From Nannocystis bainbridge (GTDB taxonomy: Bacteria > Myxococcota_A > Polyangia > Nannocystales > Nannocystaceae), in the NCBI RefSeq assembly GCF_028368995.1, contig NZ_JAQNDL010000004.1, forward strand, positions 448,001-512,000: a stretch of DNA of 64,000 nt. Direction: 5' to 3'. The notes under the pieces were generated by a model. The model did no database searches. It saw only the letters and a program-made list of their open reading frames with translations, and was not told the origin of the DNA. Positions within the stretch are counted from its first letter, which is position 1, and each line of letters opens with the position of its first letter. Made by a program: the position numbers and the translations under genes. Positions 22,616 to 59,768 of the stretch are shown here, piece after piece.

Positions 22616-22689
22616 GATGTCTCGAAGGACATGCCCATGTCGACATGTCTTCGTGGACATGCCACGAAGGACATGTTCTCACAGACAGG
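22616..22689. repeat. 14-bp-period palindromic array (6 cores)
   Basis: CATG-like cores at 22616, 22630, 22644, 22658, 22672, 22686. Confidence 0.9.
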
Positions 22690-22690
22690 C

Positions 22691-24010
22691 TCAATCTCGC
22701 CGCGGCTCGGCGGTCGGCTCGCCGCGCGGCAGCAGCAGGGTGAAGCTGGACCCGCGGCCGCTCTCGCTGTCGACGACGATGTCGCCGCCGAGCAGGCGGG
22801 CGAAGCGGCGGCTGATGGCGAGGCCGAGGCCGGTGCCGCCGAAGCCGTGGCGGGCGTCGTGGACCTGCGAGAAGTCGCGGAACAGCAGCGAAAGCTTGTC
22901 GGCGTCGATGCCGATGCCGGTGTCGGCGACGCAGAAGGCGATGAACTCGCGGTCGCCCTCGCGGGCCGCTCGCACCGCCAGCTCGACCTCGCCGCGCGCG
23001 GTGAACTTGACCGCATTGCTCAGCAAGTTGAGCAAGATCTGGCGCAGCTTGGTGGCGTCGGTCGTGATGTCCCCGAGGCCAGGTTCGAGCACCATCCGCC
23101 AGCGCAGCGGCTTGCCGCGCAGCTGCGGGCGCACGGCCGCCTCCATCTCCTCGGCCAGCGGCGCGACCGCGACCGACTCGCGCCGCAGCTGCGGGACGCC
23201 GGCCTCGAGGCGCGCGAGGTCGAGGATGTCCTCGATGACGGCGACGAGGTGGCGGCCGGAGCGGTCGACGGTCTGGATGTCGGGCAGGAGCTGGCCGAGG
23301 CCGGCGGCGGTGGCCTCCTCGCGCAGCATCTCGGCGCAGCCGAGGATCGCGTTGAGCGGCGTGCGCAGCTCGTGGCCCATGTTGGCGAGGAAGAGGTCCT
23401 TGGCGCGCGCCGCGGTGACGGCCTCGGCGCGGGCGCGGGCGAGGTCGTCCCGCTGCTCGGCGAGCTCGCGCTCGCGGCGATCGAGCTCGAGGCGGACGGC
23501 GGCCTGGCGCGCGAGGGCGAGGAGGTCGCGCCGCTGGTCCTCGTCGAAGCGGCGCGGGACGACATCGAGGATGCACAGGCCGGCGATCGCCCGGCCGGCC
23601 TCGCCGGGCAGCGACACGCCGACGAGGCTGCGCAGCCGCGGGCAGGCGGCCACCAGCGGATGCGCGGCGAACCGCGGGTCGGCGGCGAGATCTTCGATCT
23701 CGAGCGGCTCGTCGCGCGCGAGCACGGCGGTACAAAAGGACAGGTAGCGTGAGGCGTCGCCGTCGCCGAGGCCGAAGCTGCCCGCGAGCCACACGGCGTC
23801 CTCGTCGGCGAGGGCGAGCAGGACGATCGGCGCGGCCAGCAGCGTGGCGGCCAGACGCGTGAGATCGGCGAAGGCCTGCTCGCGGTCCGAGCCGACGGGC
23901 GCACGCTCCGGCGCGCCCGCACGCGGGACCTCGAGCTCGGACGACGCGACCAACTCCACGGACCTACGATACTCGCCGTCGCGAGCGCAGCAAGCCCTCT
24001 TCATCGCCAT
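22691..24010 (-). CDS. GAF-domain sensor histidine kinase
   Basis: GAF (SFCTAVL..DLAADPRFA.HPLV), H-box FLANMGHELRTPLN, N/G1/F/G2 boxes; start uncertain. Confidence 0.92.
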   Translation of the reverse strand: MAMKRACCARDGEYRRSVELVASSELEVPRAGAPERAPVGSDREQAFADLTRLAATLLAAPIVLLALADEDAVWLAGSFGLGDGDASRYLSFCTAVLARDEPLEIEDLAADPRFAAHPLVAACPRLRSLVGVSLPGEAGRAIAGLCILDVVPRRFDEDQRRDLLALARQAAVRLELDRRERELAEQRDDLARARAEAVTAARAKDLFLANMGHELRTPLNAILGCAEMLREEATAAGLGQLLPDIQTVDRSGRHLVAVIEDILDLARLEAGVPQLRRESVAVAPLAEEMEAAVRPQLRGKPLRWRMVLEPGLGDITTDATKLRQILLNLLSNAVKFTARGEVELAVRAAREGDREFIAFCVADTGIGIDADKLSLLFRDFSQVHDARHGFGGTGLGLAISRRFARLLGGDIVVDSESGRGSSFTLLLPRGEPTAEPRRD

Positions 24011-24088
24011 CTGCTTCGTACGGCTGTCCGCGGCCAGCTGTTCGAGCGATCGGGCGATCGAAGGTTCACGCGACGACTGTCGCAGTCG

Positions 24089-24955
24089 TCAGAACTTGCC
24101 GAGGCGGACGCCGAGAGTGCCGGTCAGGCCGCTGAGGATCCGGTCGCTCGGCCCGCTCCACGGCTGGGCCACGGCGAAGCGATAGCCGCCCGAGAGCACC
24201 AGCCGGAGCACGCGGGTCAGCGCGAACGACAGCCCGAGCTCGGGTTCGGCGACGAACATGGCGGCACGATTGACGCAGCGATCGAGCCGCTCGTCGTTGA
24301 GGCAGACCCGGCCGCCGCCGATGAGCGCGCCGATTTGGAGCGAGAAGAAACGGACCTGCAACAACGCGACGGCGAGCGTGACGCCGGCGTACTGGGTCCG
24401 CATGTTGAAGGTGCGGTCGTCGGAGCGCTGGGCCGGCAGCGGGGTGGCGAGCGCGTGGCCGGCGGCGCCGAACATGAAGCGCTCGTTGACGATGACGGCG
24501 AAGTCGGCGCCGAGCATCAGTCCGGGCGAGCGTCCGAAGCCGGTGAGCTTGAAGTTAGGGGCGATGTAGGCGCCGACCTTGGAGTCGCGGACGATGAGCG
24601 GCTGACCCTCGGTCCACAGCGGCCCGCGCTTGGGCTCGCGCTTGGCCTTGACCTCGGCCTTTTCGCCTGGCTTTGGGGACATGGTCTCAGGGCCAGGTTT
24701 TGAAGGAGCGGAGGTGTCGGGCGGCGCCGGGGTGGCCACGCCGGAGGAGGGCGGCTGCCAGGCCGGGACGCTGGCGGGCTGGGTGAGATCGGGCGGGTTG
24801 CCGTCGACCGGCTGGGGCGCGGGCATCGGCGCCAGCGAGGTGGAGCCGCTGCTGCTGGAGTGCGGCGAGGGCGGGGCCTGGACGCCCGCGGCCGCGCGCG
24901 CCGGGACGGACAGGAGGGCGAGCGCAGCGAACACGGAAATTGCGCGGGGGGCCAT
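24089..24955 (-). CDS. Exported protein, probable outer-membrane beta-barrel with Pro-rich linker
   Basis: Signal peptide, alternating beta pattern, GGYRF, C-terminal Phe. Confidence 0.65.
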   Translation of the reverse strand: MAPRAISVFAALALLSVPARAAAGVQAPPSPHSSSSGSTSLAPMPAPQPVDGNPPDLTQPASVPAWQPPSSGVATPAPPDTSAPSKPGPETMSPKPGEKAEVKAKREPKRGPLWTEGQPLIVRDSKVGAYIAPNFKLTGFGRSPGLMLGADFAVIVNERFMFGAAGHALATPLPAQRSDDRTFNMRTQYAGVTLAVALLQVRFFSLQIGALIGGGRVCLNDERLDRCVNRAAMFVAEPELGLSFALTRVLRLVLSGGYRFAVAQPWSGPSDRILSGLTGTLGVRLGKF

Positions 24956-25058
24956 GGGGTGGGGGATACTGTTGCAGGGGCGGCCCCACGAGGCAATCGC
25001 GGGCCGCCCGGGAGCCGGCCGGCTTGCCGGTGCGCGCCACCACGGGCAAGATCCGGGC

Positions 25059-25865
25059 GTGCGTCGCTCTGTCGTGTTCGCTCTGTCCGCCGCGGCCGCG
25101 CTGCTCGCGTGCACACCCGAGCCGGCGAGCACGGTCGAGATGCGCCAGACGGTGGTCGAGGTGGTCGACCAGGGCCGGGCGATGGCGATCGAGAACGCCA
25201 TGGTCGCGCTGGTCGGCAGCATCGACCCGGCCGACAGCCTGGCCCACATCACCGACCAGGTCGCGGCCGGGCTGGCGACGCAGACGCCGTGCGCGGTGGT
25301 CAGCCGCCCGGGCGCGGTGGCGCTGCGGGTGTGGTTCGGCAGCAAGGCCGAGCCGTGCCCCTACGCCGGGATCGGCCTCAGCGGGACGATGCGCGTGGTC
25401 TACACGCGGCCCGACGGCGACGGCCTGCTGGCGTCGATCTACTACGAGCCGCTGCGCGGCGAGGCGACGCTGCTCGACGGCTTCTCCCAGCTGACGTGGG
25501 CGCCCGACGGCAGTCAGCGGCTGGTGACCGAGATCCGGGTCGACACGGCGACCGAGCGGCAGGTGGAGATCCAGTCGGATCGCCTGCTGTCCCACGTCGA
25601 CGGCGCGCTCAAGGTCGAGGGCTGGCGCCGCTGGCAGACGCTGATGGGCCGCTGGGAGGCCGAGCTCGCCGCGCTGCTGGTCGACGCCGACGAGTTCATG
25701 CCGTACTCGGGCCTGGCCGAGGTCGAGACGCCGTTCAACCACTCGATCGTGCTCGACTTCACGCACGAGGCCGGCGGGGCCCAGGTGCGCGCCAACGGCG
25801 GCCGCCGCGACCGCCTGTTCGAGGTCACCGCCGAGGGTGACGTGATCGACGTCGGCGACGGTTAG
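25059..25865 (+). CDS. Hypothetical lipoprotein
   Basis: GTG start, ALLAC lipobox, coding-like GC3 bias. Confidence 0.7.
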   Translation: MRRSVVFALSAAAALLACTPEPASTVEMRQTVVEVVDQGRAMAIENAMVALVGSIDPADSLAHITDQVAAGLATQTPCAVVSRPGAVALRVWFGSKAEPCPYAGIGLSGTMRVVYTRPDGDGLLASIYYEPLRGEATLLDGFSQLTWAPDGSQRLVTEIRVDTATERQVEIQSDRLLSHVDGALKVEGWRRWQTLMGRWEAELAALLVDADEFMPYSGLAEVETPFNHSIVLDFTHEAGGAQVRANGGRRDRLFEVTAEGDVIDVGDG

Positions 25866-25878
25866 CGGCTGGCGCGTG

Positions 25879-25958
25879 GGACATGTCCTCGGGGGCATGC
25901 CCGCAGGACCATGTTCGTTTAAGCATGTCCTCGGGGTCATGCCCCCGAGGACATGTCC
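25879..25958. repeat. 14-bp-period palindromic array (6 cores)
   Basis: CATG at 25882, 25896, 25910, 25924, 25938, 25952. Confidence 0.92.
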
Positions 25959-25964
25959 GGGCCG

Positions 25965-27905
25965 TCAGCGCTGGAGGACCGGCCAGATCAGCGCGGTCTG
26001 GATCGGGTCCTCGCGCAGGGCGTCGAGCTGGGCCAGCACGCCGGAGACGGCCGCGAGGCCGCCGGGGCCGAGCGCGACGGCGAGGCTCGGGACCAGGTCG
26101 TGCTCGGCGGCGGCGCGGAGCAGGCTGGGGCCGGTGTCGAAGCCCTCGATCAGGTCCTTGAGGGTCGGCTCGGGCGGGTAGACCTCGAGCGCGACCTCGG
26201 GGCCGATGCCGGAGAGCTTGCGGGTCTCGGCGAGCGCCTCGGTGAGGCCGCCGAGCTCGTCGACGAGGCCGCGCTCCTTGGCGGCGGCGCCGGTCCACAC
26301 GCGGCCCTGGGCGATCGCGTGGATGTCGTCGAAGGTCTTGCCGCGGCCGCTGGCGACGCGCTCGACGAAGATCTTGTAGATGTCCTCCATCGTCGCCAGC
26401 ACGCGGGCTCGCTCGCCCTCGGTCCACGGGGTCATGCCCGACCACATCGCGGCCCGCTTGCCCCTGGTGATCGGGAAGGTGCGGATGCCGACCTTCTCGA
26501 GCATGCCGGCGACGGCGATCTTGCCGCCGACCACGCCGATCGAGCCGGTGAGGGTGTTGGCGAGGGCGAAGATCTTGGTCGCGCCGCAGGCGATGTAGTA
26601 ACCGCCCGACGCGGCCACGCCGCCCATCGACACCACGACCGGCTTCTTCTCCTTGGCCCGCTGGAGCGCGCGCCAGATCTGCTCCGAGGCCATCGCGCTG
26701 CCGCCACCGGAGTCGACGCGGAGCAGGATCGCGGCGACGTTGGCGTCGTCGGCGAGGTTGTCGATCGCGGCAGCGAGGGTGCGCCCGGCGATCTGGTTGC
26801 GCGCGCCGATGGTGCCCTGGCCGCGGCCGTCGACGATGCTGCCGAGCGCGTAGACGAGGGCGATGTGCGGCTCCTTGGGCCGCTTGGGCGGGACCAGGCC
26901 GATGAAGGTCTGCAGCTTCTCCATGTCGAAGCCGCCGCCGCTCGGGCTGTCCTTGAGCTTGACCTGCTTCCACGCGGCGCCGCCGGTGTGCTGGGCGCGG
27001 AAGTCTTCGTAGGTGGCGACGCCGTCGACGAGCCCGGCCGCGAGCGCGCCCTCGCTGGTGAACAGGGCCTCGTCGATCTGCTGCGCGACGGTCTCGGGGG
27101 CCAGCTCGCGGCCGGCGGCGATGCCCGCCTGCATGGTCAAATAGGCCTGATCGACCACGGCGGCCAGGGTCTCGCGCATCTCCTTCGACGGCTCGGTGCG
27201 CGTGAGCGGCTCGGCCGCGCCCTTGAAGGCGCCGACGTGCACGAAGTCGGGGACGACGCCGAGCTTGTCGAGCAGGCCGCGCAGGTGCAGCGGCATGGCC
27301 ATCGGGCCGGGGATCATGACCTCGCCGACCGGCTGGACGCCGACGGCGTCGCAGGCGCTCATGAGGTAGTAGACGGCGTTGGTCGGGACGTCGGCGTGGC
27401 AGACGAGCTTGCGCTTGCCCTCGGCCTTGAAGGCGAGGAAGGCGCCGCGGACCTCCTCGGCGGTGGCCATGTCGAGGCTCACGTCGGTGAAGCGGACCAG
27501 CAGGCCCTGGACGTTGGCGTCGGTGGCCAGGCGATCGAGGCGCGTCAGCAGGGCGTGGAGCTCGATGAGGGCGCCGCCGCCGAACAGCGACATCGGCGCG
27601 AGCTCGCCGATCTCGCCGCCGAGATCGAGGGTGAGCCAGTGCGGCTTGGCGGCGTCGAAGCCGGGCGACTGGCGCGGCGGGTCGTAGGGGCCGGGGGCGT
27701 CGAGCTTGTCGGCGAGCATGCTGCTCAGCGGGCCGAGGTTGGCGAGCGCGCCCGTGGGGGCCGCCGGGGCCGTCGTGGGGGCGACGTCTCGCTTGTCGCC
27801 GGCTTCGGCGGGCGGGGTCCGATCGGGCTGGCGATCGCCGCGGCAGGCGGTGGCACACAGGGTGGCGAGGCTGAGCAGGGCGGTGGTGGCTCGCGTGACG
27901 CGCAA
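25965..27905 (-). CDS. sppA: Signal peptide peptidase SppA, 67K type (protease IV)
   Basis: VGAFKGAAEP, RVDSGGGS, SMGGVAASGGYY, TGSIGV, AQGRVWTG. Confidence 0.93.
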   Translation of the reverse strand: MRVTRATTALLSLATLCATACRGDRQPDRTPPAEAGDKRDVAPTTAPAAPTGALANLGPLSSMLADKLDAPGPYDPPRQSPGFDAAKPHWLTLDLGGEIGELAPMSLFGGGALIELHALLTRLDRLATDANVQGLLVRFTDVSLDMATAEEVRGAFLAFKAEGKRKLVCHADVPTNAVYYLMSACDAVGVQPVGEVMIPGPMAMPLHLRGLLDKLGVVPDFVHVGAFKGAAEPLTRTEPSKEMRETLAAVVDQAYLTMQAGIAAGRELAPETVAQQIDEALFTSEGALAAGLVDGVATYEDFRAQHTGGAAWKQVKLKDSPSGGGFDMEKLQTFIGLVPPKRPKEPHIALVYALGSIVDGRGQGTIGARNQIAGRTLAAAIDNLADDANVAAILLRVDSGGGSAMASEQIWRALQRAKEKKPVVVSMGGVAASGGYYIACGATKIFALANTLTGSIGVVGGKIAVAGMLEKVGIRTFPITRGKRAAMWSGMTPWTEGERARVLATMEDIYKIFVERVASGRGKTFDDIHAIAQGRVWTGAAAKERGLVDELGGLTEALAETRKLSGIGPEVALEVYPPEPTLKDLIEGFDTGPSLLRAAAEHDLVPSLAVALGPGGLAAVSGVLAQLDALREDPIQTALIWPVLQR

Positions 27906-28009
27906 GGAAATTCCTCCGGGCGATGTGGACCCGGGCCGGACCCGCGGAGTGTCGCGAGCGGACGGCTGGGCGGGTCGCTTCCGCGCAAGTATCCTCCCGG
28001 CACCCCGCC

Positions 28010-29101
28010 ATGCAAAGTCCCGTGTCCGAGCTCGCCCCGCGGCCTCAGGGTCCTGAACTCCTCGCCGATCTGACGACGCTCGTGCCCGATCCGAACCGGC
28101 TGTGCGTGGCCTATGCGAGCCTCATGCAGGTGCAGGAGGGCCGCACCCGCCAGGGTCGACCGTACTTCGATCTGGTGGTGAGCGACGCCGCGCGGACCAT
28201 CGCCGCCAAGGTCTGGGACGACGCGCCCGAGGCGATGGAGGCGGCGAGGGCGGCGCGACGCGGGCAGGCGGTCAAGCTGCTGTTCCGCGTCGAGCAGTAC
28301 CAGGGCGCGCTGCAGCTCAACGTCCGCAAGCTTCGCGGCGCGCTCGACGACGACGACGGCTACGCGCCGGCGCGGGTGTTCGGCGAGGGCTTCGAGCGGG
28401 TCGCGGGCAAGCTGTGCCGCACGCTGGTGTTCGACATCGAGACGGCGCCGGCGCACGACCCGGCGACGATGCCGGCCAGCGTGATCGAGGCGATCCAGCG
28501 CCACGCGACGCGCGAGGCGTGCGAGCCGGGGCTGGTGATGAGCCTGTCGCCGCTGTTCGGGCAGGTCGTGTCGCTGGCGTTCATGGACGGCGACGACCTC
28601 GACGGCGAGGTGTGGGCGCTCGGCGTGCCGCCCGGCGGCGATCCGCGGCGGGTGGTCGAGGCGGTGCCGCCGTGGCTGCAATTGGTCAGCGAGCGCGAGC
28701 TGCTGCAGGCGTTCTGGCTGCTGGCGGCCCAGGCCGAGGTGGTGGTCAGCTACAACGGGCGCAACTTCGACGTGCCGTTCCTGCTCGGGCGCAGCCTCGT
28801 GCACGAGGTGCCGGCGCGGGTCGATCTGCTCGGCAGCCCGTACGCGTTGCGGCCGCACCTCGACCTCTACCGCATGATCGCCACCGGCCGCTCGGTCGCC
28901 CCGGCCCCGCTCGACGCGGTCTGCTGGGCGCTCGGGGTCGACAGCCCGAAGGGCGGGATGAGCGGCGCCGACGTCGCCCCGGCCTACGCCCGCGGCGAGC
29001 TGGCGGCGATCTCCTCTTACAACCGCGGCGACGTGCGCGCGACCGCCAGCGTGTACCAGCGCGTGCGCGACACGGTGCTGCGGTTCCGCGAGGACTGGTG
29101 A
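28010..29101 (+). CDS. OB-fold plus DEDD(y) 3'-5' exonuclease fusion
   Basis: N-terminus resembles a YhaM-type OB fold (TRQGRPYFDLVVSD...IAAKVWD...EQYQGALQL); ExoI VFDIET, ExoII SYNGRNFDVPFL, ExoIII YNRGDV. Confidence 0.8.
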   Translation: MQSPVSELAPRPQGPELLADLTTLVPDPNRLCVAYASLMQVQEGRTRQGRPYFDLVVSDAARTIAAKVWDDAPEAMEAARAARRGQAVKLLFRVEQYQGALQLNVRKLRGALDDDDGYAPARVFGEGFERVAGKLCRTLVFDIETAPAHDPATMPASVIEAIQRHATREACEPGLVMSLSPLFGQVVSLAFMDGDDLDGEVWALGVPPGGDPRRVVEAVPPWLQLVSERELLQAFWLLAAQAEVVVSYNGRNFDVPFLLGRSLVHEVPARVDLLGSPYALRPHLDLYRMIATGRSVAPAPLDAVCWALGVDSPKGGMSGADVAPAYARGELAAISSYNRGDVRATASVYQRVRDTVLRFREDW

Positions 29102-29107
29102 GCCGGG

Positions 29108-29271
29108 GCTGTCCGAACGGGCATGCTCTGGAGAGCATGTCCTGAAGGGCATGTAGGATCGCGCGGCCGGATGGAGCCTGCGAACAGCGAAGGGGGACAT
29201 GCCGGTTCGGGCATGTCCCCTCGTGCATGTTCTGGAGAGCATGTCCTCGCGGACATGCCCTTCGGGTCAGC
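29108..29271. repeat. 14-bp-period palindromic arrays (4 + 6 cores)
   Basis: Cores at 29108, 29122, 29136, 29150, then 29198, 29212, 29226, 29240, 29254, 29268. Confidence 0.92.
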
Positions 29272-30546: not shown

Positions 30547-30553
30547 GGCGCTG

Positions 30554-30897
30554 TCACGCGGTCGGTGGTTCTTCGAGGGTGTCGGCGGCGGCCTCGGCGG
30601 CGGCGAGCCGTTGCTCGTGTTGATCGAGGGCGCGTCGCAGGCCCTGCAAGCGCTCGTGGACCTTGTGGCGGAACCGCTGGTGCAGGTCCTTCTCGCGGAA
30701 CAGCTCGTCGGCGATCTGCATGGCGACGAGCAGGGCGACCCGTTGGGCGTTGGCGGCGCTGTTGACCCGCTTGGCGCCGCTGCTCAGCAGCTGCAAGTGG
30801 CCGTCGACGAACTCGGCCAGCTGTTGGACGTAATCCTGGCCCTCGTCGCTGCGGATCGTGAGCGTCTGCCCGGCGATCTCGACCTGGACGGAGCGCT

Positions 30898-30901
<4 letters not shown>
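30554..30901 (-). CDS. zapA: Cell division protein ZapA
   Basis: VQVEIAGQTLTIRSD...ALLVAMQIADELF followed by a coiled coil. Confidence 0.85.
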
Positions 30902-31977
<1,076 letters not shown>

Positions 31978-32245
31978 GGCGAGCGCGCGACGCTAGCACC
32001 AGGGCCGAAGGGGCTCAAGGGCCACGCCACCGCGACGAGCGCCGAAACGCGGCGGCTGCAATGCCCGGCGCAGCGTGAGCACTCGTGGCGCTGCTGCGAG
32101 GCCGAGGGCCGGCGGCGGCGAACACACACGCGGGGCGGAACCCCGCCAGGACGGCCGCAGGAGGGGGCCCTGGGGCGGATCGGGCGCGGCGGGCCGCGAG
32201 CGCCCTTGCCTCCCGGCCGGGGCGCGCGCTATCCGTGGGCGCGCC

Positions 32246-33517: not shown

Positions 33518-33722
33518 ACCGGCGCTCGCCGGGCGGGCATCGCCGCGACATGGTTGCCGGGGCCGGGCGCGCCGGACTATCCTGGCGGAGGCGCGCTGGT
33601 GCCCAGACCGGCGCTCCTCCCCGTGCGGCCGCAAACCTGTCTGCGCTTGACCACCGCGGACTTCGGGCCGGTCACGGGTGCGCACCGACCCATCACCCCC
33701 CTAGAGCGGAAGCGACTTAGCC

Positions 33723-36477: not shown

Positions 36478-36510
36478 GTCGATCGCGGCGCGGGCCCCGG
36501 CCGACGCGCG

Positions 36511-36601
36511 GGACATGGGCTTCGGGGCATGTCGCAGAGGCCAGGTGCGTTCGAGCATGTTCTGAACGACATGACGGAAGATACATGTCGTCAGGGACAG
36601 T
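36511..36601. repeat. 14-bp-period palindromic array (7 cores)
   Basis: Cores at 36514, 36528, 36542, 36556, 36570, 36584, 36598. Confidence 0.9.
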
Positions 36602-36716
36602 CGCCTGCGCGGCGGGCAAGGGGTCGCAAGGACCAGGCGCGCCGAACGGTTCAGTGCAGGCGCGTCGGTGCCCGCGGGCTCACGCTGAACGGGCAGGCGC
36701 AGCGATGCCGCGCGGA

Positions 36717-36909
36717 CGCGCTGCCGCTCGCATCAATCGACGTCGACCGCGAAGTCGACGCCGACGCTGAGCGTGCGGGCGCAGCGGTGCCGCGCTGCCG
36801 CTCGCATCAATCGACGTCGACCGCGACGCGACGCCGAGCGGGCTAGGGCAGCGGTGCCGCGCTGCCGCTCGCATCAATCGACGTCGACCGCGAAGTCGAC
36901 GCCGACGCT
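36717..36909. repeat. Three direct repeats containing the 3' end of CDS 36874..37563
   Basis: 36717-36768 is identical to 36858-36909 (52 bp); middle copy at 36781-36826. Confidence 0.92.
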
Positions 36910-37563
36910 CGGGCCGTCGTAGCCGGGGAAGCGGTGGTCGAACACGGCCTTGCGGGCGCACGGGACGATGCCCCACACGCTCAGGCTCGCGGGGGCCTTG
37001 ACCGACACGCTCTCGACCTTGCCCGAGGGCAAAAGGCGCAGCTGAACAGCGAGGCGGCCGCTGCCGACGTCGCCGTAGCGGCTGGCCGTGATCACGCAGT
37101 CGGTGATCTTCGGCGTGATCTTGGCGAAATGCTGGTCGAGGACGCGCTCGCTGGGCCGCTCGCTGCCGGCCTCGAGGTCGATCGTCTGGGTCTTGTCGCT
37201 CGAGAACTGGGGGATCTTGCGATCGTCGACAGGCACGAAGGGGGGCAGCTTTTCGGCCGGGGTCTCGGCCTCCTCGACCTCGTCGCCCGGCGCTGTCGCG
37301 GGCTCGGAGCCGTGGCCCGCGGCTGAGGCCGCCGTGGTCCGGCGCACGCGCTTCTTCTTGCGGCGCTTCTTCTTCTTTTTGCCGTCGTCGGTGACGGGTG
37401 GCGCGGCCGGGGCGTCGACGACGCACTGGCCCTCGACGCAGCTGCTCCCGGGGTCGCAGGGCGTGGCGCACTCGGGCTTCGGTGCGGGTTCGCACGCGAA
37501 CGAGGTCACCAGCGCCAGCGCGACGAGGCGGGCGAAACGGGCGCCCGGCGGATGCTCACCCAT
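36874..37563 (-). CDS. Lipoprotein with Cys motif, polybasic tract and TonB_C/AgmX-like C-terminal domain
   Basis: TSFAC lipobox; CATPCDPGSSCVEGQC; KKKKKRRKKKR; ITDC...SGRLAVQLRLLPSGKV..C...RFP. Confidence 0.7.
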   Translation of the reverse strand: MGEHPPGARFARLVALALVTSFACEPAPKPECATPCDPGSSCVEGQCVVDAPAAPPVTDDGKKKKKRRKKKRVRRTTAASAAGHGSEPATAPGDEVEEAETPAEKLPPFVPVDDRKIPQFSSDKTQTIDLEAGSERPSERVLDQHFAKITPKITDCVITASRYGDVGSGRLAVQLRLLPSGKVESVSVKAPASLSVWGIVPCARKAVFDHRFPGYDGPSVGVDFAVDVD

Positions 37564-39493: not shown

Positions 39494-39543
39494 ACGCTGC
39501 CGAGGTCGCCTCACGCCCGTTCGCCGACGCGAGCGGGCGTTTT

Positions 39544-39810
39544 GCGTCTCAGATGCAACGGGGCGGTGCGACCGATGGTGAGCGGTCGCTGCCGTGCAGA
39601 GATGGGCTGCCCGCACGGGTGCGGCTCGCTTCGCGTTTCGGATGCACGGGGCGGTGCGACCGATGGCGAGCGGTCGCTGCCGTGCAGAGATGGGCTGCCC
39701 GCACGGGTGGGAGGCGCTTCGCGTTTCGGATGCACGGGGCGAAGCGACCGATGGCGAGCGGTCGCTGCCGTGCAAAGGGGGGCTGCCCGCATGGGTGCGG
39801 CTCGCTTCGC
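39544..39810. repeat. 3 x ~88-bp tandem repeat with internal hairpin
   Basis: GATGCA anchors at 39552, 39641, 39729; TGCACGG..GCGACCG / CGGTCGC.GCCGTGCA dyad. Confidence 0.93.
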
Positions 39811-40229
39811 GGGCGGCGTAATGGGGTCGTCGCCCGCGGGTGACTTCGAGGCATCGACACGACCAGGGCAGGTCGTCGTGCGGGCCTTCATCCGCGGCGG
39901 CGGCGACGGTGCCGATGCATGCACGAGGGCCCGGATCGCGCGGCGTCGCTCCGAAGCAGGCGTCGAGGCGGCGGGCCGGGAGCAGCGCACGCGCATGGTG
40001 TGCGAGGGGATCGGCGATGTCGTCGCCGCGATCGGGTCGCGACTCCCAATCGTCGATGCGGCGAGAAATGCCTCAGAGGTGCATGCAGGGCCATGAATTC
40101 GCCGGATCGGTCGACGTGGCCTTTGGGACCTGCGCCACGCGGCAGGTCGCCACGCTCGGCCCGTGATCGACGGGAGAGTTGCAGGCTCGCCAACGTGTTC
40201 CAGACTTGCGCCGCAGAAGGAGTGAGAGC

Positions 40230-40553
40230 ATGGCACGTAGCAATCGGACAAAGCAGAGTGGGCCGGCGCGGGCCGGCGCGAAAGTACGCAAGGCGGCTTC
40301 GGCCAAGACCGCTGCCCCGTCGCGGACGAAGAGCGCCGCGGTGAAGGGCAAGACGACGGCGGCCAGCAAGGCGACGAGCAAGCCGGCCGCGCGCGCGAGC
40401 AAGCAAACCGCGGCGCCCGCTTCGACGACCCGCAGCGAGGCGGCGAAGAAGGGCTGGGAGACCCGTCGTCGCCGGGCCGCGAAGGCGTCCCCGACGACGA
40501 CGCGCAAGGCCGCCGCCGGCAGCACGAAGGCGAAGAAGACCCGGGCCCGCTAG
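40230..40553 (+). CDS. Small Lys/Ala/Arg-rich histone H1-like basic protein
   Basis: AAGGAG RBS; 107 aa, almost no acidic residues; RSEAAKKGWETRRRR motif. Confidence 0.75.
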   Translation: MARSNRTKQSGPARAGAKVRKAASAKTAAPSRTKSAAVKGKTTAASKATSKPAARASKQTAAPASTTRSEAAKKGWETRRRRAAKASPTTTRKAAAGSTKAKKTRAR

Positions 40554-40556
40554 CGA

Positions 40557-40578
40557 GATGTCCTTCGGGACATGTCCC
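40557..40578. repeat. Single 14-bp palindromic unit (two cores)
   Basis: GATGTCCTTCGGGACATGTCCC, cores at 40557 and 40571, immediately after the stop codon. Confidence 0.75.
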
Positions 40579-41022
40579 ACAGGCGGCCAGCCGCAGGACC
40601 GCGCGGCTGGCCGAGTCGCGGACGGGCGCACAGGACCGCGTGCGCCCGTCCGCTCGTGACAGCGGACGAGGCGGCGACGCCGACGCGACGGCGTGACGCA
40701 GACCGGACGAGGCACGAGACCGCGTGGCTCGTCCGGCAGCAGAAGCGACGAGGTTGCGAGGCTCGCCGCGTCGGCGCGTGAAAGCAGAGGACGAGGGTGA
40801 CGGCCGGCTCACCCGACAAGACGGCGAGCCACGAGACCGTGTGGCTCGCCGTCGCTTTCATGGAGACCGCGGGATACGCCGGCGCTGTCAGAGACGGGGA
40901 GCCTCGAGATCGTGGGACTCGACCCGGCATCTGCCGACGAGGCGCGAAGCGCTCGTGCGATGAGGAATCGGCGCCGGGCAGTGGGAATCATTCCCCCGCG
41001 TCGGTCTGGAAGTCAGTGGCTG

Positions 41023-44197: not shown

Positions 44198-44208
44198 GGC
44201 GGCAGCTC

Positions 44209-44356
44209 CAGGTGCGAGGGACAGGGCGAAACGGACAGGCGAGGACCGCGGTCGGATGCTGAGAGGGAAGGATCGCGGAGGACAGGGCGAAACGGACAGG
44301 TCGGAGAGGACAGGTCGGAGAGGACAGGTCGCGGAGGACAGGTCGGAGAGGACAGG
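44209..44356. repeat. 14-bp-period array, GGACAGGTC variant
   Basis: CAGG at 44222 and 44236, then 44283, 44297, 44311, 44325, 44339, 44353. Confidence 0.9.
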
Positions 44357-44362
44357 CGAGCG

Positions 44363-48979: not shown

Positions 48980-48993
48980 GGCCGCGGTGAAAC

Positions 48994-49035
48994 GAGCACG
49001 ACCCCGGGGGCGCGGCTCCCGGGGTCGTTCTTCTT
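48994..49035 (+). terminator. Putative intrinsic terminator
   Basis: ACGACCCCGGG / CCCGGGGTCGT stem followed by TCTTCTT. Confidence 0.65.
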
Positions 49036-49136
49036 CATGGTGCGAGCACGACGCGAGAGCGCGGCCTTCGGCGCCGCGGCCTTGCGCTTGTCGCCCGCGC
49101 GGGCCCGGCCTAGGCTGGGGAACCGGAGGAGCGCCC

Positions 49137-49958: not shown

Positions 49959-49963
49959 GCGAA

Positions 49964-50056
49964 GGGACATGTCCGATGGGACATTCCCTCGAGGACATGG
50001 GCTTCGGGGCAGGTCTTTGGGAGCATGTCCGATAGGACATGACGTGAGGCGACATG
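49964..50056. repeat. 14-bp-period palindromic array (6-7 cores)
   Basis: Cores at 49968, 49982, 49996, 50010, 50024, 50038 (and 50053). Confidence 0.9.
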
Positions 50057-50119
50057 GGCCGGCGCCGACGCGACGAGCGTGGCCGGCGTGCTGACCCCCA
50101 GCGCGGGGGAATGCGCCGC

Positions 50120-51589: not shown

Positions 51590-51702
51590 CGGGCAAGGCT
51601 GGCCGAGGCCCGCCGCGGCGCAAGCAGGCGGGCGGGCCGGAAGCGGCGATGCGGGGCGGCAATTGCGGGCTGCAGGTCGAGGACGGCGCGGCCGTGCGTC
51701 AG

Positions 51703-51928
51703 GATGTCTCTCGGGACATGTCACTCGCGCTCGCCGAGTGGATGTCTCTCGGGACATTTCACTCGCGCGCTCGTCGGCGTCGAGTGGATGTCTCTCGGGA
51801 CGTTTCACTCGCGCGCTCGCCCGCGCCCGGCACATGTCCCGAGGGACATGTCACTCGGGACATGTGCCGGGTACATGTCTCTCGGGACATGTCACTCGCG
51901 CGCTCGCACGCATGACCCGAAGGACATG
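51703..51928. repeat. Composite array of 14-bp units (GATGTCTCTCGGGACATGTCACTCG repeated)
   Basis: Core groups at 51703/51717, 51741/51755, 51787/51801, 51833/51847/51861, 51874/51888, 51911/51925. Confidence 0.92.
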
Positions 51929-51947
51929 CGCGCGCGCGGGTGCCGCC

Positions 51948-54749: not shown

Positions 54750-54960
54750 GCGCGAGAGCTCTGGAGCCGAGCGGGCCAACGATACCCCGGCGGCCACAAG
54801 CCGGGCAGCCCGGTCCGCGTAGGGTCTGCGCTGGATCGGGCGCCGGACGAGGCGCGCAGGCCCACGGGCGGGCAGTGTCACAGTCGAGCTTCGCGGTGCG
54901 CTCTTTGCGCAGCGCGGGGAGCCGGCGGGCCGCGCAGATCTGCCCCCGCGCGGGCGGGCC

Positions 54961-56919
54961 TCACGCAGGCTCGTGGAGCGGCAGACGGATGACGACGGCG
55001 GCGCCGCCGAGCTCGCTGTCCTCGACCCGGACCTCGCCGTTGTGGTCGAGCACGACCTTCTTGACGATCGCAAGGCCGAGGCCGGTGCCCTCCTTGCGGG
55101 TCGACTCGTAGGGCTCGAAGACCCGCTCGCGCCGCTCGATCTCGATGCCGGGGCCGTTGTCGTCGACGCGCAGCTCGACGAACCCGGGCTCGCCCCGGGC
55201 CGGCCGCGCGGCCACCCGCACGTGCACGGGGCCGCGCTGCCGCTGCGACAGCACCGCGTTCTCGACCAGGTTGACCAGGCATTGCTTGAGCAGCTGGCGG
55301 TCGCCGAGGATGACGAGCGAGGCCGGGGCGGGCATGACCTCGAGGACATCGGCGTCGCGCTCGGTGAGGTGGCCGTAGGCGCGCTCGAACTCGCCGAGGA
55401 TCCGCGCGACCAGGGTCGGCTCGAGCTGGGCCTCGGGGACCTTGGCGAAGCGCGAGAAGCTGGTGACCATGCGCCGCAGCGACTCGATCTCGTCCTCGAC
55501 GATCTCGACCGAGGAGCGGAGCAGGCGCGAGAAGTTCTCGTCGGTGCCGGGGTCCTTCTCGCGCAGCTGCTGGGCGGCCAGCTGGATCGGGGTGAGCGGG
55601 TTCTTGATCTCGTGGGCGATCCGCCGCGCCATCTCCTGCCAGGCGCCGACCCGCTGCAGGTAGGACAGCTTGCGCTGGGCCGAGGCGAGCTCGTCGAGCA
55701 TGCCGTTGAAGGCGGCGCCGAGCTGGCCGAGCTCGTCGTTGCCGAGCTCGGGCACGCGCGCCAGCAGGTCGCCGCCGGCGACCCGCAGCATGGCGTCGCT
55801 GAGCATGCTGAGCTTGCGCGTGGTGGCCCGCGCGAGCAGGAAGCCGGCGATGAAGGCGACCATCAGCACGAGCGCGCTGGCGGCCCCGATCGCGCGGTAG
55901 ACGGCCCGCTCGAGCTCGCCGCGGTCGACGACGTTGCCGTCGACGGTGACGTAGTCGAGGCCGCGCTTGATCATGCCGAGCGACTGGTAGTCGCGGTCGA
56001 GCGCGGGGTCGAGGGCGAAGATGGCGGCGAGGCGATCCTGGTCGGTGGGACCTGTCGCTTTGAACATGTTCAAAGGGACAGGCCCGGACATGACCCAGAT
56101 CCGCGCGCCCTCGTCCTCGGGCAGCAGATCGCGCCGCTCGGCCAGGGCGTGGTGCGGGCCGTTGATCTCCAGCTCGACGAGGTCGGGCTCGCGGCGCAGC
56201 AGGGCGTGCAGCAGCTCGCGCGGGCCGGCGGGGTCGTCGGCGGTCAGCTCGCCGCGGGCGGCGGCCAGCTCGAGCTCGCGGGCCATGGCCTCGAGGCGGG
56301 CGCGGTAGGTCTCCTTGCGGGCCTTGACGTAGCCGTCGTAGAAGGGCAGCGAGAGGGCGACGGCGTCGTCGCTCTTCTGGGTGGCGGCGCCGACGATGCC
56401 CTCGAAGTACTGGACGGTGAGGGCGACGAGGTAGGCCGAGGCGCCGACGCAGAGGATGCCGAGGCAGACGAGCGCGGTGATCACCCGCGACTCGAGCCGA
56501 CCCCACCACGGCACACGCGGGGCGGCGACGATGCGCTGACCGATCCGCGTCATGCGGATCCGCGAGAGGTCGCTCGGGCGCGAGTCGGCGGCGCCGAAGC
56601 GGAAGAAAGAAGAAGTGCGGGCCCCGGCCTTGTCGGCGCGCGGGTGGACGCTGGACTCGGGGCGCGCGGCCGGGGTGACGGCGGAGGGCGGGCGCGCGGC
56701 GGTCCGGGCTCGCGGCCGCGAGGGCTCGCCGAGCCTGGGGCGCGGATCGAGGTCGTCGCGCGGGCCCGCGGGCAATTCGTCGGAGGCGGCCGGCGTGGTG
56801 CGCGAGCCGGATCGTCGCGGGAGGTCGTCGCGCGATCCGGCTTGATGCGTCGCGTCGCGCGCGCCGGGCGGGTTCACCGGGCGCGGGGCGTCGTCGTCGC
56901 TGGGGCCGCGCGCGCTCAT
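54961..56919 (-). CDS. HAMP sensor histidine kinase, NtrY-like
   Basis: Two TM helices, HAMP, AWQEMARRIAHEIKNPLTPI, DNGPGI, GTGLGL; ATGA coupling at 56916-56919 (alternative start 56553). Confidence 0.92.
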   Translation of the reverse strand: MSARGPSDDDAPRPVNPPGARDATHQAGSRDDLPRRSGSRTTPAASDELPAGPRDDLDPRPRLGEPSRPRARTAARPPSAVTPAARPESSVHPRADKAGARTSSFFRFGAADSRPSDLSRIRMTRIGQRIVAAPRVPWWGRLESRVITALVCLGILCVGASAYLVALTVQYFEGIVGAATQKSDDAVALSLPFYDGYVKARKETYRARLEAMARELELAAARGELTADDPAGPRELLHALLRREPDLVELEINGPHHALAERRDLLPEDEGARIWVMSGPVPLNMFKATGPTDQDRLAAIFALDPALDRDYQSLGMIKRGLDYVTVDGNVVDRGELERAVYRAIGAASALVLMVAFIAGFLLARATTRKLSMLSDAMLRVAGGDLLARVPELGNDELGQLGAAFNGMLDELASAQRKLSYLQRVGAWQEMARRIAHEIKNPLTPIQLAAQQLREKDPGTDENFSRLLRSSVEIVEDEIESLRRMVTSFSRFAKVPEAQLEPTLVARILGEFERAYGHLTERDADVLEVMPAPASLVILGDRQLLKQCLVNLVENAVLSQRQRGPVHVRVAARPARGEPGFVELRVDDNGPGIEIERRERVFEPYESTRKEGTGLGLAIVKKVVLDHNGEVRVEDSELGGAAVVIRLPLHEPA

Positions 56920-57560
56920 GACGACACCAGATAGAAGCCCGGGACGGTTTTTATTGCGAAGGTCTGCTCGGCGCTCTGGGTGGCGCGGACGAAGATGCCG
57001 ACCCACCGCGAGAACACCGAGAGGTCGCGGCCCTGGCCGCGGTCCCACTCGTCGCCGGACTGCGGGGCGAGCAGGTCGCGGTCGATCGGGTTGCGCTGGC
57101 CGACGACGGTGGCGAAATAGACGGCCTCAGGGCCGCGCTGGAGGGCGCTGACGCGGGCGATGCGGACGCGGTCGAGGGTGGTGGCGCGGGCGATCGCCTC
57201 GTCGCGATCGGTGTAGTAGCGGATCTGCGGGGCGCGCCCGGGATCGCTGGTGGTGACCACGTAGCGCTCTTTCCACGGGTTGTACTGGATCTTGACGACG
57301 CGCGAGCGCTGGTCGACCGGGAGGCTGTGGCCGGTGCGATAGACGACGATCTCGAACACGAGGGTGGTGGCGAACGCCGACTCGAGCGAGGCCATGGCGT
57401 CGTCGTCGCGCGTGGGCAGGAGCTCGGGCATGGCGGCGGTCATGAGCACGCCGTCGCCGACCTCCTCGAACTTGGCCCGGCGGTTGCGCAGCAGCTCGAG
57501 GCCGCTGGCGCCCAGCAGCGGCAAGGAGAGGCCGGCGAGCAGGAGGGCGCGCCGCTTCAC
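56916..57560 (-). CDS. DUF4390-like exported protein
   Basis: Signal peptide; VKIQYNPWKERYVV pattern; lies upstream of the NtrY-like kinase. Confidence 0.65.
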   Translation of the reverse strand: MKRRALLLAGLSLPLLGASGLELLRNRRAKFEEVGDGVLMTAAMPELLPTRDDDAMASLESAFATTLVFEIVVYRTGHSLPVDQRSRVVKIQYNPWKERYVVTTSDPGRAPQIRYYTDRDEAIARATTLDRVRIARVSALQRGPEAVYFATVVGQRNPIDRDLLAPQSGDEWDRGQGRDLSVFSRWVGIFVRATQSAEQTFAIKTVPGFYLVSS

Positions 57561-59122
57561 AGCGGGGTCCTCCGCAGGACGTTGCCGACGCTGAACTCGA
57601 GCGCGCCGACGACGGTCTCGAGGCGCAGGCCGAAGTTGGCGTTGAAGCCGACCGGGGCGGCCCACTCGCCGGCGGCGCGGTGGAGGGCCCGCTCGGCGGC
57701 GTCGCCGGCGAAGGTGAAGATGCCGGTCGACCACACGAGATAGCCGGCCTTGATCCCGCGCACGCGGTTGCGCTGGAACAGCGGCCACACGTACTCGAGG
57801 TCGACGCGCGCGAACAACGAGCCGAGGACGCGGCGATCGACGCCGGTATTGAAGACGTCGACCGGGCTGCGGGTGGTGTAGATGAGACCCAGCTCGCGCC
57901 CGGGGGTCCAGTCGCTGAGATCGCCGGCGAAGAAGCGCTCGAACCGCGGGGCCCGGCCGGCGATCTGGCCGGCGACGAGGCTGGGGGTGATCCAGTGGCC
58001 CCAGGGCAGGCGGAAGCTGTAGGCGGCGCCGGCGACCAGCTTGATGTACTCGTACTCGCTGCCGACCAGCGGGGAGCTGAGCTGGAGGTCGAGGGCGACG
58101 CGGGCGCCCTTGCCGAGGCGCGCGGCCTCGTCGCGGCCGTCGTAGTTGAGGCCGAAGTTGAAGGAGGTGAGGCGGTGGACGCCGCCGAGCAGCTCGAGGT
58201 CGACCGGGCGGGTCTCGCCGAGCGGCGAGGTGTAGGTCGGGTCGCCGGGCGGCTGGGCGTTGACGCGCTCGAACCGGTAGTCGAGGCCGAAGACGAGGCG
58301 GTTGCCGGCGTTGAAGGTGGTGCCGAGGATGCCGCCGATCCGGCCGTAGTCGACGGTGCGGAACAGCGACGGGTCAGGGTCCTCGGGGCGGCCGGCGATC
58401 CGGAACGGCTCGCTGGCAGAGGTGACGTAGATGGTGCCGGCGAGGCCGAACCGCGAGCCACGCAGGCGCGGGGCGGCGAGGTGGAGCCGGAAGGCCTGCT
58501 GCCGCCGGCTGCGCGGGACCTGCCGCGGCAAGCTGCCCCACACGAAGCCGCCGCCGAGGTGCAGGGCGCGGCCGAGGAAGTTGCGCTCGAGCGCCTGGAC
58601 GCCGCCGCGGAAGGGGGTGAAGCGAGATGTCCCGAGGTACAGGTCGGTGACCTCGAGCGAGCTGCGCTCCTCGACCTCGACGGTCAAGGTGACGCTGCCC
58701 GGGTCGTCGGCGAGGGGGCGCAGGCGCAGGGTGACGCGCTCGAAGGCGTCGGTCTGGAGCAGGCGCAGGCGGGCCCGCTGGACCCGCGCGTCCTCGGGCC
58801 ACAACAAGGTGGCGCCCTCGCGCAGGCCCTCGGCGGCGAGGATTTCGACGATCCGCGCGCTCGGGGTCTGCTCGGTGCCGCGGACGGTGAGCGCGGCGAT
58901 GGTGACGCTGCGCCGCTCCTGAGCGCCGGCGGTCGCTGCGCCTGGACCGGGGCCCGGATCGGCGGGGGCGACGACGACAGGTCGGGCGGGTGGACCGGCA
59001 GCCGCGGCGGTCCACGGCAGGATACCTGCCGCGAAGAGCCCCCACGCGGGGCCGCACGACCACCGACTCGGAGCAGGCCGCCGGGATCGGCGGTCGCCTG
59101 CGCGGGCGTCAGGGGCGTGCAT
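57557..59122 (-). CDS. BamA/TamA (Omp85) family protein with a single POTRA domain
   Basis: POTRA (ITVRGT-like...LLQTDAFERV...VEVEER), ERNFLGRA, FERFFAGD; TACACT 8 nt before the ATG. Confidence 0.8.
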   Translation of the reverse strand: MHAPDARAGDRRSRRPAPSRWSCGPAWGLFAAGILPWTAAAAGPPARPVVVAPADPGPGPGAATAGAQERRSVTIAALTVRGTEQTPSARIVEILAAEGLREGATLLWPEDARVQRARLRLLQTDAFERVTLRLRPLADDPGSVTLTVEVEERSSLEVTDLYLGTSRFTPFRGGVQALERNFLGRALHLGGGFVWGSLPRQVPRSRRQQAFRLHLAAPRLRGSRFGLAGTIYVTSASEPFRIAGRPEDPDPSLFRTVDYGRIGGILGTTFNAGNRLVFGLDYRFERVNAQPPGDPTYTSPLGETRPVDLELLGGVHRLTSFNFGLNYDGRDEAARLGKGARVALDLQLSSPLVGSEYEYIKLVAGAAYSFRLPWGHWITPSLVAGQIAGRAPRFERFFAGDLSDWTPGRELGLIYTTRSPVDVFNTGVDRRVLGSLFARVDLEYVWPLFQRNRVRGIKAGYLVWSTGIFTFAGDAAERALHRAAGEWAAPVGFNANFGLRLETVVGALEFSVGNVLRRTPL

Positions 59123-59183
59123 CGGCCGCGAGTGTAACGCAAGGCGCGCCCGCGCCGCTCCGTTGTCCGCTAGACTGCGTCCC

Positions 59184-59567
59184 GTGGTGGGCCGCAAGCT
59201 CGTCGTCTACATCGAGGACAACCCGAGCAACTTCGCTCTGGCCCGCAAGATCCTCGAGCTGTCCGGCGACTACGAGGTCATCGGCGCCAAGGACGGGGTG
59301 TCCGGCCTGGCCCTGGTGCGCGACCGGCGACCGGACGTGGTCCTCCTCGACCTCGATCTGCCGGGGATCAGCGGGATCGAGGTGGTGCAGCGGATCCGCG
59401 CGAGCCCCGACATCGCGGGGACGCCGGTGCTGGCGGTGACGGCGAGCGTGATGAAACGCGAGCGCCGCCAGGCGATGGACGCGGGGTGCGACCGCTTCAT
59501 CGAGAAGCCGTTCGACATCCACGAGCTGCGCAGCCAGGTCGACGAGGTCGCGGCGATCCAGCGCTGA
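59184..59567 (+). CDS. Single-domain response regulator (DivK/CheY-like)
   Basis: YIEDNPSN, LLDLDLPG, AVTA, IEKPF. Confidence 0.92.
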   Translation: MVGRKLVVYIEDNPSNFALARKILELSGDYEVIGAKDGVSGLALVRDRRPDVVLLDLDLPGISGIEVVQRIRASPDIAGTPVLAVTASVMKRERRQAMDAGCDRFIEKPFDIHELRSQVDEVAAIQR

Positions 59568-59666
59568 AGCCGAGCGGGTGCGCCTGGCCGAAGGGGCAGG
59601 TGCGCGGGGCGGCGGGTGAGGAGTCGGCCGAATCGGCGACCTGGCGGCGGTGAGCGGTCGCGCGAG

Positions 59667-59768
59667 GCTGTCCGAAGGGGCAGGTCCCAAGGGGAATGTC
59701 CGAAGGGGCAGGTCTGAAGGGGCAGGTCCCAAGGGGCATGTGCCAGGGGACATGCCCGAAGGGTCAGG
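59667..59768. repeat. 14-bp-period palindromic array (8 cores)
   Basis: Cores at 59667, 59681, 59695, 59709, 59723, 59737, 59751, 59765. Confidence 0.93.

Follow-up and report, generated by a model that had tools for sequence, protein, structure and literature searches.

This study concerns a family of short palindromic repeat arrays in a 64,000-nucleotide stretch of the Nannocystis bainbridge genome (RefSeq assembly GCF_028368995.1, contig NZ_JAQNDL010000004.1, positions 448,001 to 512,000), hereafter the window. An earlier note, made from the letters of the window, had described clusters of degenerate TGTCC-N4-GGACA units phased at 14 bp and had proposed that they mark the junctions at which genes converge. 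The genome is 11.05 Mb long in 5 contigs with a GC content of 71.5%, and its tyrosyl-tRNA synthetase (TyrRS) is 90-92% identical to the TyrRS of N. exedens, N. pusilla, N. punicea and Nannocystis sp. RBIL2. Pfam analysis indicates that the genes of the window are ordinary chromosomal ones (EF-P, TyrRS, a peptide chain release factor, ExbB/D and histidine kinases), and Rfam returned no family match in the window at the gathering threshold. Genes were called with our own caller, which relies on GC3 and codon-position composition and produced 7912 genes with 83% of the sequence coding; the convergent, tandem and divergent junction classes used below all derive from this crude caller, and the statistics built on them depend on it. 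The portions available of the N. exedens genome announcement list 9,278 coding sequences in 12.1 Mb (PMC5658511), and the sole mention of repeats in those portions is that large repetitive regions blocked closure of the assembly (PMC5658511).

By our gene calls, seven of the eight convergent junctions in the window carry an array, as the earlier note had claimed, and the arrays that it placed at 25879-25958 and 59667-59768 read as it described them. The first of these has six units, fills the convergent junction 25866-25964 and is matched by 5, 5, 7 and 5 units at the orthologous junctions of four partner species of the genus; its RNA folds strongly on both strands (z-scores of -8.3 and -8.5). 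The second lies in the convergent junction 59568-59763 and consists of six full units (59678-59757) flanked by degenerate end units (partners with 6, 6, 8 and 6 units), making eight periods with CAGG, AATG and CATG cores and RNA fold z-scores of -4.7 on the plus strand and -1.4 on the minus strand. A five-unit array located with a position weight matrix (PWM) occupies 22627-22692 in the convergent junction 22499-22690 (partners with 4, 3, 5 and 3 units), while six-unit arrays are present at 36511-36590 (convergent junction 36478-36873; partners with 5, 2, 5 and 0 units) and at 49965-50044 (convergent junction 49959-50119; five units in each of the four partners). Downstream of tyrS, the convergent junction 29102-29271 contains sub-arrays of three units (29119-29156) and five units (29195-29260) together with an orphan TGTCC half-site at 29106, the whole element spanning 29106-29260. 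In a five-species alignment of the array after tyrS, four successive units have an invariant CATG core in the same register, and the spacers and flanks differ. The site at 40.6 kb does hold an array (40554-40577), as previously stated, but one of only two units in a 1.5-kb gap (39494-41022), and it is found in two of the four partners. The only convergent junction of the window that lacks an array, 20556-20693, instead carries a canonical hairpin and T-run (20575-20625, plus strand), which does not belong to the family.

Arrays in the window are not confined to convergent junctions. A CAGG-core array with one intact half-site per unit covers 44215-44356 in the tandem junction 44198-44362 (minus strand); the array has undergone local expansion in this genome, each of the five species has four recognisable CAGG-core units at the orthologous site, and the array's sense RNA is without excess structure (z -0.40). 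The tandem junction 51590-51947, also on the minus strand, contains at 51724-51928 a 46-bp higher-order repeat of TGTCT-N4-GGACA units together with in-phase arrays at 51830-51867 and 51871-51894. A weak two-unit array (24677-24700), present in two of the four partner species, lies in a 754-bp gap that was called divergent and may hide an uncalled gene. The clusters had further been described as intergenic, which is correct for most of them but not for the cluster at 62.7 kb, a four-unit array with CCTG/CAGG cores (62697-62748) inside the gene 60780-63827 (plus strand). Three more arrays speak against a purely intergenic distribution, namely a four-unit array (11426-11477) inside a gene of the tRNA-synt_2 family (10809-11810, plus strand), a three-unit array (56048-56085) inside a histidine kinase gene (54961-56775, minus strand) and a degenerate three-unit array (5171-5208) inside the gene 4086-5252 (minus strand).

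The repeating unit is a 10-bp near-palindrome with the consensus GGACATGTCC, followed by a free, AT-rich spacer of 4 nt, giving a period of 14 bp. In the window, the pattern CATG-N10-CATG occurs 26 times (expected 0.37, with a maximum of 2 in 100 dinucleotide-preserving shuffles), and Tandem Repeats Finder reports period-14 arrays at 25924, 29106, 44278, 51828, 59670 and 62703. A histogram of CATG-CATG distances over the whole genome demonstrates 3736 pairs at 14 bp, compared with 72 at 13 bp and 262 at 15 bp, and displays harmonics at 28, 42, 56 and 70 bp; likewise, the spacing of ACATGT is exactly 14 in 557 of the 561 distances that fall within 12-16 bp. The PWM was trained on units sandwiched between two CATG neighbours, which keeps the content of the unit itself unbiased. 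Among 2073 such units the core is CATG in 1670, CCTG in 70 and CAGG in 62, and the flanks are R-rich on one side and Y-rich on the other (RRR/YYY), so the conserved information reaches beyond the CATG. Scanning the genome with this matrix identified 3135 arrays of at least two units (range 2-19), including 1457 of at least three units; 1678 have two units, 550 three, 370 four, 264 five, 196 six, 57 seven and 20 eight or more. A control genome shuffled in 500-bp blocks yielded 14 two-unit arrays and none of three or more. The genome-wide scan and the core distances thus bear out the sharp 14-bp peak expected from the window. When masked with 20-bp pads, the arrays span 255,795 bp, or 2.3% of the genome. 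They are present on all contigs, with 31-109 arrays per full 250-kb bin, and a regional bias along the chromosome was rejected, the bin counts showing no clear link to the GC-skew switch.

Adjacent units are not near-identical to one another (direct lag-1 identity odds ratios of 0.96-1.27), and the arrays are therefore unlike a variable-number tandem repeat (VNTR) generated by slippage, in agreement with what the earlier note had said. Exceptions are the local expansions at 44280-44345 and in junction 66. The ends of the arrays are informative as to the true unit. At 1602 array ends, the period immediately beyond the last complete CATG unit retains the inward half-site TGYCC with 1.39 bits of information (0.55, 0.34, 0.14, 0.16 and 0.20 bits by position), whereas the outward half is not retained (0.27 bits; 0.02, 0.01, 0.13, 0.01 and 0.10), and retention of the inward half-site is equal at ends facing the upstream and the downstream gene. 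The working unit is therefore TGTCC-N4-GGACA, as had been proposed, abutted in such a way that CA meets TG; a row of these inverted repeats reads head to tail as GGACATGTCC plus a 4-nt spacer. Even unit numbers are not preferred, and convergent arrays plateau at 4-6 units, after which their counts fall from 122 at six units to 29 at seven and 5 at eight. Within a unit, G3 and C8 are found together 251 times over the arrays of the genome, which represents a depletion (odds ratio 0.41, z -9.9). Avoidance of a restriction site as the cause of this G3/C8 deficit was ruled out, GCATGC outside the arrays occurring at an observed-to-expected ratio of 1.00.

Results for the gaps of 40-399 bp between genes demonstrate a strong dependence on gene orientation. 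Arrays of at least two units are present in 650 of 1060 convergent gaps (61%), 542 of 2578 tandem gaps (21%) and 66 of 980 divergent gaps (7%), the odds ratio for convergent gaps being 5.96 relative to tandem and 21.95 relative to divergent ones; even among short tandem gaps of 40-99 bp, 96 of 776 carry an array. The 515 arrays of at least three units at tandem junctions start at a median of 19 bp past the upstream stop codon and end 163 bp before the next start, 384 of them being nearer to the stop and 130 nearer to the start. The distance from stop codon to array peaks at +6 and -8, where the TGA stop supplies the TG of the terminal half-site. Gap occupancy and distance from the stop codon together indicate that the element marks the 3' ends of genes generally, and that convergent junctions are richest in arrays because they contain two 3' ends and no promoter. 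The earlier statement that the arrays mark convergent junctions consequently holds as an enrichment and fails as an exclusive rule, given the tandem arrays at 44.3 and 51.8 kb. Promoter-side arrays, beside which an autoregulated gene for a binder might lie, are few, with only 27 arrays of at least four units in gaps called divergent, mostly large ones. Some arrays lie within operons or in frame inside genes.

Canonical terminators, as detected by a crude finder, are present at 54 of 711 convergent junctions with an array and at 85 of 571 without one (odds ratio 0.47); the same crude finder detects them at 80 of 819 tandem junctions with an array and at 345 of 2227 without (odds ratio 0.59). 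A hairpin made of array units and followed by a T-run was observed at 106 of the 711 convergent and 70 of the 819 tandem array-bearing junctions, and most arrays are without a T-run. Arrays inside genes form a sizeable minority. Of the 1457 arrays of at least three units, 297 are inside called genes, and 156 of these are flanked on both sides by coding signal in the frame of the host gene; 108 of the 156 comprise three units, that is 42 bp or 14 codons. CATG is retained in 56% of the units of genic arrays, compared with 84% in convergent and 75% in tandem arrays. An E2 acyltransferase-like protein has one five-unit array (C2:369682) translated within the linker that follows its lipoyl domain; all five Nannocystis species have this array, and the sister-genus orthologue lacks it.

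The taxonomic distribution of the arrays is narrow. A two-unit pattern that occurs 443 times in this genome is found 2-280 times in all ten other Nannocystis genomes, the low counts coming from fragmented assemblies, and 0-2 times in 30 genomes from other genera of the family and class; it is absent from all of 300 further Myxococcota genomes representing 208 other genera. In 400 kb of a sister genus, no 4- or 5-mer was found to form a similarly phased array. The same 400 kb does show a weak excess of GTTG, TGTT and TTGG at a distance of 20 bp (10-15 pairs), which may be another small repeat. After the tyrS stop codon in four sister-genus loci, including Paraliomyxa, a GC-rich hairpin (GAGCCCACCCCCC...GGGGGGTGGGCTC) stands where Nannocystis has its array, and this hairpin may constitute a repeat family of its own. 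The arrays are thus a Nannocystis-specific family of gene-end elements.

To follow the arrays in evolution, we compared a 100-kb syntenic block with 72 junctions in five species (this genome and the four partners). This genome has an array at 19 of the 72 junctions. The partner likewise has one at these in 60 of 70 comparisons, compared with 10 of 208 at the 53 empty junctions, while the number of units varies between species (for example 6, 5, 5, 7 and 5 at 25.9 kb). Alignment of units between species (843 comparisons) gave identities of 0.49-0.53 for spacers, 0.65-0.78 for flanks and 0.88-0.97 for the CATG core; in the close pair N. pusilla and RBIL2 the spacer identity is about 0.7, reflecting descent with point changes. 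Gaps of 1-2 nt inside arrays in these alignments look like artefacts of the aligner. Because five species share the same junctions, core and register, the arrays are old and inherited, and the alignments indicate that selection holds the CATG and half-site sequence and the exact 14-bp register, leaving the spacers free to drift. The family was probably the result of one burst in the ancestor of the genus, given that copies of the same age also lie in frame inside genes.

Several other repeats were encountered in the window. In the 1.5-kb gap 39494-41022, four hairpins with differing 9-13-bp stems and a common 10-nt loop (C[AG][GA]GACCG[CT]G) lie at 40585-40870, and the orthologous gap of four other Nannocystis species contains 4-10 such hairpins, in which the loop is retained and the stems have changed. 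The loop motif with a matching stem (at least 8 of 9 bp) occurs at three sites in the genome, all at this locus, and Rfam gave no match; the cluster may represent a multi-hairpin non-coding RNA. The same gap contains an 88-bp tandem repeat (39544-39811; 3.0 copies, 90% matches). Beside the 36.5-kb array is a 67-bp tandem repeat (36717-36909; 2.7 copies) that overlaps the start of the gene 36874-37563 (minus strand), and a 26-bp tandem repeat (14228-14387; 6.2 copies, 98% matches) separates a TonB-like gene from exbB.

In an effort to distinguish the level at which the arrays act, signals expected of duplex DNA and of RNA were compared. Compensation within units is absent (observed-to-expected ratio 0.85; odds ratio 0.41), and facing stem positions of adjacent units form Watson-Crick pairs in only 67% of cases. 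On the sense strand the spacer composition is mirror-symmetric and the alternative cores are balanced (CCTG 7.3%, CAGG 6.5%). Sense and antisense transcripts fold equally strongly, with 253 and 258 arrays respectively (p 0.23). Signals at the level of RNA are weak overall. Recognition of duplex DNA is favoured because sequence rather than pairing is conserved, because the two strands are treated alike and because the spacing is exact in spite of near-saturated spacers. Since a sequence is kept in fixed helical register and looks the same on both strands, the likeliest reader is a dimeric sequence-specific DNA-binding protein. We therefore favour, tentatively and at slightly less than even odds, the reading that the arrays are phase-locked operators for a putative dimeric DNA-binding protein at the ends of transcription units. 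One dimer would bind each 14-bp operator, with its neighbours turned by about 120 degrees around the helix; a row would usually comprise two to six dimers, and the coated stretch would mark the end of the transcription unit. The likely consequence would be control of read-through, or handling of transcription-generated supercoils, at 3' ends, and the hairpins that many array transcripts can form might contribute secondarily.

Several observations weigh against this operator reading. Complementarity between adjacent units, although weak (odds ratios of 1.18-1.76), reaches statistical significance (z up to 4.5). On the sense strand there is more GU than AC (1580 against 1191, ratio 1.33), and by array GU is the more frequent in 246 and the less frequent in 195 (p 0.017). 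Many arrays can form very stable hairpins (z -8), the family median fold being -0.39 kcal/mol/nt compared with -0.22 in shuffles, and the GC-rich hairpin after tyrS in the four sister-genus loci suggests a hairpin-type function there. That arrays abut or overlap the stop codon makes a tight roadblock to RNA polymerase unlikely, since one placed there would stall the enzyme before it had completed the gene. The crudeness of the gene caller implies that some assignments to junction classes are wrong. The cooperative binding of a dimeric protein put forward in the earlier note is consistent with the conservation of sequence and register and with the strand symmetry; no binding protein was identified, PadR being the sole family tried as a lead, and the proposal remains one deduced from sequence. 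PadR proteins recognize an ATGT-N8-ACAT operator. PadR was rejected as the binder, PF03551 having no match in this genome or in six of the ten other Nannocystis genomes.

The alternative that survives best is an RNA element resembling repetitive extragenic palindromic (REP) elements, in which neighbouring units pair into 10-bp stems with 4-nt loops and serve as a terminator without a U-tract, as a barrier to 3' exonucleases, or both. Such an element would be functional in either orientation and in any register because each unit is palindromic. Its position directly past stop codons and its enrichment at 3' ends are in accord with this explanation, as are the lower frequency of canonical terminators at array junctions (odds ratios 0.47 and 0.59) and the sister-genus hairpin at the same place after tyrS. 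The strong fold excess of some arrays (z -8.3, -8.5 and -4.7), which is present family-wide, points the same way, and so do the sense-strand GU/AC ratio of 1.33, the weak complementarity of adjacent units without direct lag-1 identity, and the arrays in 40-99-bp tandem gaps, which resemble the intra-operon REPs of E. coli. A stem, however, requires pairing and not a fixed CATG, whereas in the arrays the core is conserved and pairing reaches only 67%. Loops and linkers should tolerate 3-6 nt, but more than 99% of the spacings are exactly 14. The sense strand does not fold better than the antisense (253 against 258), CAGG and CCTG cores show no strand preference, and the 44.3-kb CAGG-core array has units at the orthologous site in five species with no sense fold excess. 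Moreover, an orphan 5-bp half-site at an array end is useless as a stem, even unit numbers are not preferred, and the T-run is missing from most arrays, a hairpin of array units with a T-run being present at only 106 of 711 convergent array junctions. As the principal explanation we consider this RNA element rather doubtful, though the binding of a protein to DNA and a REP-like action of the RNA could both be true.

It is improbable that the arrays are a selfish or neutral repeat that spread in the ancestor of Nannocystis and survives, without host function, where it is least harmful (convergent more than tandem more than divergent junctions). Confinement to one genus, the approximately 156 arrays of at least three units in frame inside genes (108 with three units), the E2 acyltransferase-like linker array shared by five species and not by the sister genus, and the local duplications and expansions at junctions 52 and 66 and at 44280-44345 would all suit such a repeat, and the orientation bias is what purifying selection on harmful insertions would be expected to produce. 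Neutral decay, on the other hand, would wipe out both the core and the phase, whereas the core (0.88-0.97) and the register are kept and the spacers (0.49-0.53) are not; CATG persists in 75-84% of the units of intergenic arrays and in 56% of those of genic arrays. Neighbouring units did not arise by recent copying of one another, no RAYT/Y1 transposase was found in the 11 genomes, and presence or absence is stable over the five species (60 of 70 against 10 of 208). Least probable is an epigenetic or structural mark read without a dedicated lattice protein, with phased CATG as methyltransferase targets or CA/TG kinks or cruciforms, which would suit the conservation of CATG above all other parts of the unit and the strand symmetry of an element built of palindromic units but not the extension of conserved information to the RRR/YYY flanks, the fixed 14-bp spacing or the orthologous-site units in five species of CAGG-core arrays with single half-sites.

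Little is understood of how transcription units are ended in GC-rich bacteria that have few canonical terminators, and here one short motif in strict helical register follows about half of the convergent gene pairs and has been kept through the divergence of at least five species. If read by a protein, the arrays would represent a novel type of gene-boundary system in bacteria, with a simple DNA code; if they act as RNA, they would be a REP analogue without the REP hallmarks, in which sequence and not structure alone is selectable. A bolder proposal, which we consider possible but by no means likely, is that an abundant dimeric protein specific to the genus polymerises on the approximately 3100 arrays, delimits transcription units and has largely replaced ordinary terminator hairpins. 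This would give bacteria a counterpart of sequence-specific terminator or insulator factors and would amount to a genome-wide 3'-end chromatin system in Nannocystis. In practical terms, the arrays predict where operons end in Nannocystis, which produces natural products; they also account for the linker insertions that lie in frame in about 150 genes, and they provide a genus-specific DNA signature.

The earlier note did not recognise the element as a described one, and we likewise found no printed description of the arrays in open-access papers and preprints, although one may exist elsewhere. Miniature inverted-repeat transposable elements (MITEs) carry terminal inverted repeats and target-site duplications, are about 100-400 bp long and are related to insertion sequences. 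The inward 5-bp half-sites at array ends can be read as tiny terminal inverted repeats, PF01797 being the only insertion-sequence family that was searched for. Lag-1 identity odds ratios of 0.96-1.27 separate the arrays from slippage VNTRs and minisatellites, local expansions excepted. Rickettsia palindromic elements (RPEs) insert in frame and measure about 100-150 bp. A subset of the arrays resembles them in lying in frame within genes and being translated as a linker peptide, but RPEs are single-copy per site and unphased, while the Nannocystis copies are phased and mostly intergenic. The available part of one paper mentions RPEs (PMC3733652) and describes CRISPR loci as repeats of 24-48 bp with unique spacers of similar length (PMC3733652), dimensions unlike the 10-bp repeat and 4-nt spacer of the arrays. 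Intrinsic terminators are similar to the arrays in their position after genes and their GC-rich pairing potential, and the two are partially exclusive of one another. The arrays differ from them in that most lack the U-tract (a hairpin is present in many arrays and a T-run in few), one sequence recurs in phase at thousands of sites, and the sense strand has no folding advantage.

The likeness to REPs and bacterial interspersed mosaic elements (BIMEs) is closer, since both are short palindromes in high copy, extragenic at 3' ends at convergent and tandem junctions, often clustered and specific to a genus or species; the 3135 arrays, with occupancies of 61%, 21% and 7% at convergent, tandem and divergent junctions, agree with the high-copy, extragenic 3'-end distribution that characterizes REPs. 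In the parts of the literature available, roles in termination, mRNA stability and supercoiling have been proposed for REPs and BIMEs (PMC3733652, PMC2817692, bioRxiv 10.64898/2026.03.23.713779), and intra-operon REPs of E. coli are presented as combined terminators and stabilisers (bioRxiv 10.64898/2026.03.23.713779). The REP unit is described there as an imperfect palindrome of 20-40 bp forming one stem-loop (PMC3733652), whereas the array unit is a 5-4-5 inverted repeat of 14 bp. One end of a REP bears a GTAG or CGTC tetranucleotide (PMC3733652); neither tag is present in the GGACATGTCC consensus or in the array-end profiles. The same available portions link REPs to genes of REP-associated tyrosine transposases (RAYTs) (PMC3733652, PMC2817692), CGTC REPs also being reported without a dedicated transposase (PMC3733652). 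The RAYT/Y1 transposase family PF01797 had no match in any of the 11 Nannocystis genomes, of which the present one is 90% complete, and was detected in control genomes; mobilisation by a RAYT was ruled out on this ground, which upholds the earlier note's distinction from such REPs. REP positions differ between E. coli strains according to the accessible text (bioRxiv 10.64898/2026.03.23.713779), while array positions are stable across Nannocystis species. In addition, REP linkers are variable and array units abut in a strict 14-bp register, and it is sequence, not pairing, that is conserved in the arrays.

The architecture of the arrays resembles that of tandem operators for cooperative dimers. 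Such operators include the met boxes bound by MetJ and plasmid partition iterons such as parC, bound by ParR. In both these systems and the arrays, 2 to about 10 short symmetric units follow one another head to tail at a fixed spacing, with free sequence between the contacts. Each replicon has few met boxes or iterons, located in promoters or centromere-like sites, whereas the Nannocystis arrays number about 3100 and are placed past stop codons. Symmetric sites in a fixed register, conserved contact positions and free positions between them are nevertheless all found in the arrays, and their cognate binder is putative.

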